Shown: positions 30,145-44,740 of the stretch, piece after piece
Numbering within the stretch: the first letter of the stretch is position 1
Layout of the letters: every line of letters begins with the position of its first letter
Virus record (IMG/VR): IMGVR_UViG_3300011438_000008
Location: 1-44,740 of that record
Strand: one strand, 5' to 3'
DNA: 44,740 nucleotides
Source: a virus
Taxonomy: Duplodnaviria > Caudoviricetes
Position numbers and translations under genes: made by a program
Notes under the pieces: model-generated
Told to the model about the DNA's origin: nothing
The model's input: only the letters and a program-made list of their open reading frames with translations
Databases searched by the model: none

Positions 30145-30414
30145 ATGAACGAATTAACAACACTATCAGATCAGGTCAGTAAAATTGACTATAATAAGCT
30201 TTCGAGTCAGTACGGTTGGACTGACGTGGAGATAGCTACAATTCAAAGTACCGTAGCAAAAGGGACTTCTAAAGTTGAGCTTGCTTTCTTCCTGTCATTG
30301 GCAAAGTCTGTGGGGCTGAATCCTTTTAATAAGGAAATTTGGTGCTACAAAGACAATAAGGGGAATTTGCTTATCTTCTCCGGGCGTGACGGATTCTTGA
30401 AGAAGGCCTTTTAA
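30145..30414 (+). pseudogene. Truncated Bet/RecT-like single-strand annealing protein
   Basis: ELAFFL..GLNPFNKEIW..GRDGFLKKA N-terminal motif; cut at 89 aa where the 46-bp repeat begins. Confidence 0.75.
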
Positions 30415-37397: not shown

Positions 37398-37513
37398 TAT
37401 ATTTGAAATAGCGATCCAACTTATGAAACCATCAAAAATATGCCTCGCCTTAATGTGCCTTTTGACCTTTCGGTCAGTTGGATCGCCGCATTATTGCGGG
37501 GCTACTTTTTGTT
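37398..37513 (+). promoter_or_regulatory. Promoter (TATATTTG) plus structured leader of the RAMP-like gene
   Basis: TAnnTTTG at 37398-37405; 11-bp inverted repeat 37411-37421/37476-37486; additional hairpins. Confidence 0.65.
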
Positions 37514-38089
37514 ATGAAAACATTTCAAATCAAAATCAAAGGGCTGACACCTTATATGCAGCACAGAATGGATGACACCAAACTTGAAGAATGGGAAAAG
37601 AAACGGCCTAACATTATGGAACGTGCGGAAGTGTCACACGAAGACGCTGTAAGGGCTGAGTACCATTGCTACCGAAACAAAGACGGTAAATGCTTTATTC
37701 CTTCCGAACAAATTAGAGGCTCTTTAATCGGTGCGGGAACGTACATGAAAGCGAAGGTAGGAGGTCGGGCCAAGTCTATGAAAGTGATCGTAGCCGCTAC
37801 GTTCCAGCCCACACCTGACGAAATTCTATTGCCTGACTTCGACACCATCGACAAGAGATCAGCCGTAAACAGAAACGTGAAAGCGAGGGTGATGGTCATC
37901 CGCCCAAAGTGGAATGATTGGTCAGCGTCTTTCATCCTCAACGTTTACGAAGATACAATTACAAAAGAAACGGTTTCGCAACTAATAACATATGCTGGTA
38001 ATTACGTTGGCATTGGTTCGTATAGACCAACAGCTAGCGGATTGTTCGGCAGATTTGAACTTGAAAGTATTACAAATGGAGCACTGTGA
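37514..38089 (+). CDS. Stand-alone RAMP/Cas7-like protein
   Basis: beta1 FQIKIKGLTPYMQH; FIPSEQIRGSL (cf. IPGSSLKG of Cas7/Csm3); Gly-rich loop GIGSYRPTASGLFGRF. Confidence 0.75.
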   Translation: MKTFQIKIKGLTPYMQHRMDDTKLEEWEKKRPNIMERAEVSHEDAVRAEYHCYRNKDGKCFIPSEQIRGSLIGAGTYMKAKVGGRAKSMKVIVAATFQPTPDEILLPDFDTIDKRSAVNRNVKARVMVIRPKWNDWSASFILNVYEDTITKETVSQLITYAGNYVGIGSYRPTASGLFGRFELESITNGAL

Positions 38090-38170
38090 TGTCCAGTGTA
38101 GTCGCGTTTAGTACTGTCGCGTCGAGTCCTGTCCGGTCGCGTCGAGCATGGTGGAGTTATGTAAAGCCTT
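38081..38170 (+). repeat. Pentamer-periodic array (GYNNN)x18, candidate guide RNA
   Basis: gcact gtgat gtcca gtgta gtcgc gttta gtact gtcgc gtcga gtcct gtccg gtcgc gtcga gcatg gtgga gttat gtaaa gcctt. Confidence 0.9.
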
Positions 38171-38194
38171 TCGGTGGAGGTTAACCGAATTTTT
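38165..38194 (+). terminator. Hairpin/pseudoknot plus T-tract closing the array
   Basis: TTCGGT (38170-75)/ACCGAA (38184-89), then TTTTT. Confidence 0.5.
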
Positions 38195-38524
38195 ATGAAA
38201 ACATCAGAAGAATACGAAAAGGAAATAGCTCAATTAAAGGCCGAACTGGAAAAATGGAAACAAGCAGCTAGGAAAGTAGCGGGTGATTGGGAAGAAATGT
38301 ATCGAGAAGCTAAGGCCGAACGGGATAACGTTTTGAAACTTGCTAATGATAGAAACGAAGAATTGATAAAACTCCGCGCCGAACTTGAAGAATCAGAACA
38401 TGAGATTAAGAGCTTAGGTAGTTTATTAGTTGAGGTTCGCGCCGAACGGGATAAGCTGAAAGAGGAAATCGAACACCTAAAAGGGCGCATCCAATTTTGG
38501 ATTAGGAAGGGACAAGAAACGTGA
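38195..38524 (+). CDS. Coiled-coil protein with repeated (K/R)AE(R/L)(D/E) units
   Basis: Likely start ATG 38195; GCCGAAC recurs four times. Confidence 0.7.
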   Translation: MKTSEEYEKEIAQLKAELEKWKQAARKVAGDWEEMYREAKAERDNVLKLANDRNEELIKLRAELEESEHEIKSLGSLLVEVRAERDKLKEEIEHLKGRIQFWIRKGQET

Positions 38525-44599: not shown

Positions 44600-44740
44600 T
44601 TAAAAATAAGTTTCGTCATGCCATAATCCGTCATCTTCATCAAAATACGCCTCATCGTGCCACAATCCGTCGTCATCTGGAAAGTAAGCTGCATCGTGCC
44701 ATAATCCGTCGTCGGTGTTCTGATCAACCTCATCGGCCAC
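44600..44740 (-). CDS. 3' part of the junction-spanning DDGLWHD-repeat protein
   Basis: Stop TAA at 44600-44602, 3 nt before the ATG at 44596. Confidence 0.75.
   Translation of the reverse strand: MADEVDQNTDDGLWHDAAYFPDDDGLWHDEAYFDEDDGLWHDETYF
44618..44740. repeat. Terminal direct repeat, copy 2
   Basis: Identical to 1-123. Confidence 0.95.

Follow-up and report, generated by a model that had tools for sequence, protein, structure and literature searches.

A single-guide VIPR locus of relaxed NGY/NN units in a phage genome, and the target information carried by the first unit base in related guides

The 44,740-bp stretch of DNA analysed here (the window) is a complete virus record with direct terminal repeats, and contains a VIPR locus with one guide, made up of relaxed NGY/NN units. 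In relatives of this locus, the first base of each unit (N1) was found to keep the amino acid encoded by the matched gene in held-out matches; thus, no target base is lost from the guides, which thereby bear a trace of the way they are written. With somewhat better than even confidence, we favor the reading that the locus silences foreign DNA by means of a guide copied from its target with GY inserted, and that the match of this guide to the gene downstream is probably due to chance. A first-pass annotation of the window had proposed that deleting the constant GY from the array yields a contiguous sequence matching that gene; the idea of decoding by GY deletion holds at the clade level, and the self-match that prompted it is its weakest part.

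The vipr gene, its array, and its tail

The window encodes terminase, portal, head protease, and tape measure genes, and no CRISPR-like tandem array is listed among its tandem repeats; VIPR is defined in part by such a setting, in a phage or provirus and without a CRISPR array. No Rfam family was matched and no promoter excess was seen, and contigs from three DNA sequencing runs showed no variant. Elsewhere in the genome, a 39-nt tandem repeat lies at both ends (2-97 and 44619-44713), within the terminal repeat, and an 89-aa ORF (30145-30414) matches only the N-terminus of RecT/Bet-like annealing proteins and may be a truncated gene. The features discussed below are collected in Table 1.

Table 1. 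Features of the window locus, and guides of related loci matching DUF2188 genes
Feature	Position	Strand	Remark
vipr gene, 191 aa	37514..38089	+	ATG at 37514; TTG at 37478 is an alternative start from the ORF caller
Predicted vrRNA guide tract, 17 N-G-Y-N-N units	38080..38164	+	Unbroken period-5 GY; overlaps the last vipr codons
Predicted 3′ tail: hairpin and crossing stem, then U run	38165..38194	+	Common to six close loci
Coiled-coil ORF, 109 aa	38195..38524	+	Four short internal repeats; not a conserved accessory gene
12/12 match site	38372..38383	+	Real match; 13/36 NN across the full guide
15/16 match site	38438..38453	+	Best contiguous match in the genome; probably chance
DUF2188-matching guides	L005:10798, L006:10811, L006:10981, L034:1078, L055:545, L061:4246		Match the start of DUF2188 genes

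The first of these ORFs encodes a Vipr homologue, that is, a stand-alone Cas7/RAMP-like protein with the RRM, thumb, and G-loop of that family. A profile of 88 sequences matched SUSP1 Vipr (PDB 36pp) over its full length (E 4.2e-13), phrog_4652 matched the ORF with an E value of 6e-25, and 653 homologues were found among 701 candidates. The best Foldseek matches of the predicted model (mean pLDDT 77) are type VII and type III Cas7/Csm3 chains. Among 401 genomes of one order, phrog_4652 was found in one, namely the center genome itself.

In SUSP1 Vipr, the first G of the unit (G1) is read by His17 and Asp177 (bioRxiv 10.64898/2026.04.26.720927). In the window protein, Ser occupies the position of Asp177, with the equivalents of His17 and Arg179 retained, and the same Ser is present in 96 of 98 loci (a set in which some contigs occur twice, being drawn from two collections, and from which two copies of the window's own record were excluded). 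The invariant GGY read by Asp177 in type II systems such as that of SUSP1 is absent from this clade, the first unit position being A in 40%, T in 34%, G in 15%, and C in 11% of cases. Because Ser stands where SUSP1 reads the first G, this position would be free. An independent search based on the scaffold only returned 50 Vipr-like loci among 133, and mostly-G units were present in eight of the nine Vipr-like contigs having Asp or Glu in a readable G-loop. Several variants of the locus were also encountered: two vipr copies carry one in-frame stop with their arrays kept (L013:10001-10591 and L090:2569-3114); Vipr-like genes adjoin other scaffolds, namely GTT/NN, GTC/NN, GAC/NN, CAC/NN, TGT/NN, and RGT/NN (L296, L304, L310, L314, L330, L343, L352, L359, L370, and L371); and one NGY VIPR locus (L293) lies on a contig whose title assigns it to a Pacearchaeota genome bin and which may be a mis-binned phage.

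Adjacent to vipr, GY recurs every 5 nt, 18 times, over 38080-38169, with the 18th unit (38165-38169) forming the first stem of the tail. The start given in the first-pass annotation, 38126, is thus a mid-array position and wrong, but removal of GY from the 18 pentamers yields exactly the 54-mer quoted there. A run of at least seven NGY/NN units was present on the vipr strand in 93 of the 98 loci. The NGY/NN unit corresponds to YNNNG, arrays of which are listed in the methods of the VIPR preprint (bioRxiv 10.64898/2026.04.26.720920), and the relaxed scaffold is therefore already known. Tandem Repeats Finder detected weak 15-nt periods alone at this site, as might be expected of a degenerate tandem repeat without guide function; however, that reading is very improbable, given that the array always adjoins a Vipr homologue, that the tail is conserved, and that the arrays of relatives decode to real genes.

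The tail comprises a hairpin (38170-38189) and a crossing stem pairing 38165-38169 with 38178-38182. In an alignment of seven sequences, 89.6% of cells were paired, with compensatory changes in the hairpin only, consistent with the structured, conserved 3′ tail of VIPR loci. A pseudoknot is possible in the predicted tail, and is the less sure because changes in the crossing stem are confined to one of its sides. A terminator-like site coincides with the tail, the folding energy of which was not above that of shuffles. Judged from these sequence features, the array behind vipr is likely a DNA-silencing guide RNA, that is, a predicted vrRNA. Multi-guide arrangements differ among loci: tails resembling the 3′ halves of tRNAs separate guides in L075:10658-11340, and long in-phase arrays with single T-rich units between guides occur in L009:9618-9972 and L014:7357-7776.

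Guide matches in related loci and the first unit base

Matches of guides to their own loci identified N4N5 with a 1-nt skip as the productive decoding rule: under it, 10 of 206 guides exceeded all 60 shuffles (3.4 expected), compared with 2-5 guides under other rules. Pairing through NN with a 1-nt skip, as described for VIPR, is thus seen computationally in the relatives, and no target was found for the window guide. In 18 whole records, z rose above 6 for 3 of 61 guides, all within 0.7 kb of vipr. Altogether, 9 of 210 guides have a match in their own locus, either in vipr or in a neighbor gene; none of the nine matches is farther than about 1 kb from vipr, although three occur in records of 53-78 kb. 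The matched neighbor genes are unrelated to each other (one is exonuclease VIII), and the genes beside vipr differ from locus to locus. The skip falls on the wobble position in five matches, compared with one in each of the other two registers. A reversed-guide control gave two NNx matches at p<=0.0025 versus five observed, and one null run gave three frame-incoherent matches at p<=0.002; the shuffle nulls are slightly generous. The only new NGY loci, L293 and L325 (four guides), gave no match. When 185 guides were compared as peptides in all six frames, the top four were those of L029, L009, L016, and L034. Two guides, L016:9147 and L047:998, match conserved vipr motifs (the G-loop end and an N-terminal motif); as contiguous DNA, the L016 guide fits the vipr of L009 slightly better than its own. 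Minus-strand decoding of L034:403 and L037:3556 yields one and the same peptide of 7 residues; N1 falls at codon position 2, and the two guides differ at wobble positions only.

The rule above makes no use of N1. Seven matches passed p<=0.01 on NN alone, and six were tested for N1, L036 (a 17-nt exact match) being excluded; frames were set manually from the target ORFs, that of L089 being uncertain. Of 32 informative sites, the held-out N1 keeps the target amino acid at 31 (17.6 expected, p 2e-8) and, in the four strongest matches, at 24 of 25, compared with 65 of 112 (61.3 expected) in 40 non-significant matches serving as control. Thus, at the clade level there is strong support for the proposal that such arrays stem from contiguous sequence into which GY has been interleaved every 3 nt, and decoding at homologous loci, a check suggested with it, does recover real gene sequence. 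In two matches in non-wobble registers, selected with N1 included, N1 agrees at 12/14 sites (L034, codon position 2) and 8/8 sites (L047, codon position 1). N1 equals the carrier's own skipped base at chance only (18 of 50 versus 15.4), and mismatches at NN are often synonymous, so that the template looks like a diverged homologue of the carrier's gene. Guides sharing sequence in shifted registers occurred at chance. In a target-free codon test, GY-deleted guides were more codon-like than N1-permuted ones (0/300); this test was not accepted as evidence, since N5 and N1 are neighbors in the DNA and an adjacency-free frame shows nothing. In the literature searched, nothing was found that links the first VIPR unit base to a target.

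A second group of targets emerged from cores common to guides of different phages, which differ at synonymous sites. The motif shared by these cores was taken to be that of DUF2188. Thirty DUF2188 genes were taken from the 54 positive genomes among 301 on the Bacteroidota side, and 6 of 235 guides, from five loci and chosen on NN only, match the first codons of such genes (0.075 expected; Table 1). These six are not independent, since their carriers share 78-86% Vipr identity. All six place the skip at the wobble position, with exact runs of 15-19 nt, and N1 keeps the target amino acid at 23 of 23 sites (11.4 expected, p 4e-8). In the nine DUF2188 loci examined, neighboring genes included CBASS genes in two and type I restriction subunits in four, as well as a pPIWI nuclease and a ThiF protein; DUF2188 itself has been predicted to act in defense (bioRxiv 2022.04.27.489752). 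Inspection of 168 carrier records revealed no DUF2188 start motif in frame. RNA-guided anti-defense is a possible function of these six guides. In the literature searched, nothing was found that links VIPR to DUF2188.

Over the neighbor-gene and DUF2188 sets, N1 is wrong at 1 of 55 sites, a rate that fits pairing as well as recent copying. A serious rival to the skip code is thus a contiguous three-of-five code in which N1 is read and only GY is looped out. Besides the low error rate, it draws on the chance-level agreement of N1 with the carrier's own base, which would confer self-immunity; on the high NN matches kept by own genes (20/22 in L016), which would amount to self-targeting under a pure skip code; and on the occurrence of matches in all three registers. 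Under this code, synonymous mismatches would shield the phage's own neighbor genes and leave rival alleles open to silencing, for which the marker exclusion known from free-standing homing endonucleases offers a precedent (PMC12724721). However, the wobble-aligned excess is what the skip code predicts, and we regard a read N1 as somewhat improbable, if less so than the other alternatives considered here.

The neighbor-matching guides might instead be autoregulatory or fossil, having been written from the carrier's own operon, the flanking gene later drifting or being swapped by recombination. Indeed, the carrier's own gene is the best match, among the sequences compared, for L003, L009, L029, L034, and L036, and the confinement of all nine matches to the surroundings of vipr, even in the long records, agrees with such an origin. 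On the other hand, the differences respect the genetic code at N4 as well (through swaps of Arg and Leu codons), a pattern that guide drift would not produce; a neutral N1 should decay while wobble sites saturate; and no self-targets were reported for the clades tested in the VIPR preprint (bioRxiv 10.64898/2026.04.26.720920). We consider this origin unlikely.

The window guide and the downstream coiled-coil gene

The 109-aa ORF starts 26 nt past the array and contains four [KR]AE[LR][ED] repeats. Its Pfam matches are to coiled coils only, all sub-threshold, the ESM Atlas returned generic coiled coils only, and no close homologues were found. It is an orphan coiled coil rather than a conserved accessory gene, and it stands downstream of vipr in place of the DNA-binding accessory gene vap1 of type II loci.

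Both matches reported in the first-pass annotation were reproduced in this repeat-containing ORF: the shorter is exact (12/12), and the sole mismatch of the longer (15/16) places a guide U opposite a template G. The first half of the guide is unmatched, as had been stated. The match is real as such, but the shuffle check advised there does not show it to be better than chance genome-wide, since 46-136 of 1000 shuffles equal it. In detail, across the whole 44,740-bp genome, 136 of 1000 triplet shuffles contained an exact match of at least 12, 130 of 1000 reached a +1/-1 score of at least 14, and 46 of 1000 a +1/-2 score of at least 13; with GC-weighted scoring, 33 of 2000 equaled the self-match. 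Over the full guide, the longer site pairs at 18/36 NN positions and so fails the published 2-of-3 code, the target cut-off in the VIPR preprint being 80% (bioRxiv 10.64898/2026.04.26.720920). In the alignments of both sites, the skipped base falls at codon position 2.

One version of the self-match idea holds that a rival phage's homologue of the coiled-coil gene served as the template of the guide. In the 1.2 kb around vipr, the self-match is equaled by 5 of 1418 shuffles (p 0.0035) and by none of 59 other loci, in a test whose neighborhood prior was drawn from other loci and which used one of four rules tried; the same site ranks best under all four. Furthermore, L003, a close relative with the window's layout, targets its own downstream gene, and N1 matches at 8 of 11 positions in the matched stretch, which was itself selected on N1. 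Against this origin, the best peptide-level match in the neighborhood is a different site, equaled by 481 of 2000 shuffles, compared with 0, 0, 2, and 2 of 500 in four relatives; a stop codon lies inside the guide in the matching frame; the match spans about 6 of 17 units, leaving the first half unaccounted for; 94 kb of unrelated DNA gives the guide a higher score (15 versus 14); and the gene lacks a detected homologue. In addition, the GC content of the guide (0.53, among the two GC-richest of 210) differs from that of the gene (0.41). By sequence comparison, then, the match is probably chance: we hold it doubtful that the self-match is real, and the copying from a rival's homologue equally so, with the neighborhood p value and the clade's neighbor bias keeping the self-match alive. 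Support for the earlier suggestion of the downstream gene, or a homologue of it, as the guide's target is accordingly weak for the window itself, while the pattern is real in the relatives, being that of the 9 of 210 guides above.

Searches for another target of this guide were negative. Seven decoding rules gave no significant self-target in the window genome. A short gapped motif gave 30 viral matches (best 7/18 flanking NN) and a second register 54 matches in 35 distinct footprints (best 10/27 flanking bases), and in the 401 genomes of one order, 28 one-mismatch sites were found, none extending. A target was thus not found in these genome and viral searches; it is possible that it differs within guide units 5-12, and it is probably GC-richer than the window phage.

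Proposed mechanism and relation to known systems

For SUSP1, filament assembly, gapped pairing, and transcriptional silencing have been described, and we infer by analogy that the same activity operates at the window locus. The Vipr homologue and the single NGY/NN array would likely form a guide-protein filament, and the guide would pair with a foreign DNA target through the two bases after each GY and so silence it, every third target base likely being skipped. The free first base would still carry the skipped base, such that GY deletion restores contiguous gene sequence, as is seen statistically in the relatives. Guides would arise as copies of contiguous target DNA, interrupted by a GY after each third base, and the free base would be a mostly unread footprint of this copying; that N1 goes unread is suggested by the SUSP1 structure together with the wobble-aligned excess (5 to 1 to 1). 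The targets in relatives would be DUF2188 genes of host defense islands and synonymous variants of vipr neighbors, probably rival alleles. The broader proposition, comprising a guide-writing process and the silencing of both DUF2188-start defense operons and rival neighbor alleles, possibly with all three bases pairing, is in our view evenly balanced.

The type II VIPR systems of SUSP1 and a P. fulva prophage (bioRxiv 10.64898/2026.04.26.720920 and 10.64898/2026.04.26.720927) likewise have a phage-encoded, stand-alone RAMP homologue, 5-nt units with a fixed GY, a structured 3′ tail, and a wobble-aligned 1-nt skip, and guides targeting vipr occur there as in the window's relatives. In contrast, the first unit base in the window clade is free, with Ser for Asp177, and carries target information; the window has a single 17-unit guide and no recognizable vap gene; and its relatives match their own neighbor genes and host DUF2188 genes. 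Of the non-canonical vrRNAs, WGT/NN, TGH/NN, and GAC/NN forms appear in a further preprint (bioRxiv 10.64898/2026.10.21.760802); the YNNNG listing already includes the window's relaxed scaffold, and the published text examined gives neither a target rule nor a relation of N1 to the target. Class 1 CRISPR backbones (Cas7/Csm3) share the RAMP fold, and the guides of the window clade likewise appear copied from foreign DNA, but the window lacks CRISPR repeats and a cas operon, and its guide is interrupted every three bases. The T4 homing endonucleases SegF and SegG (PMC12724721) may offer a functional analogy, the guides being aimed at alleles of neighbor genes; unlike free-standing homing endonucleases, the window locus contains no nuclease and would be RNA-guided.

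The VIPR text examined does not deal with guide acquisition. Canonical GGY guides do not retain the skipped base, and their origin is therefore unreadable from sequence, whereas NGY guides keep it, which argues for templated copying over base-by-base tuning. The retained base also makes NGY targets searchable as ordinary contiguous DNA, and the DUF2188 matches point to a phage RNA guide that may be directed against host defense islands.
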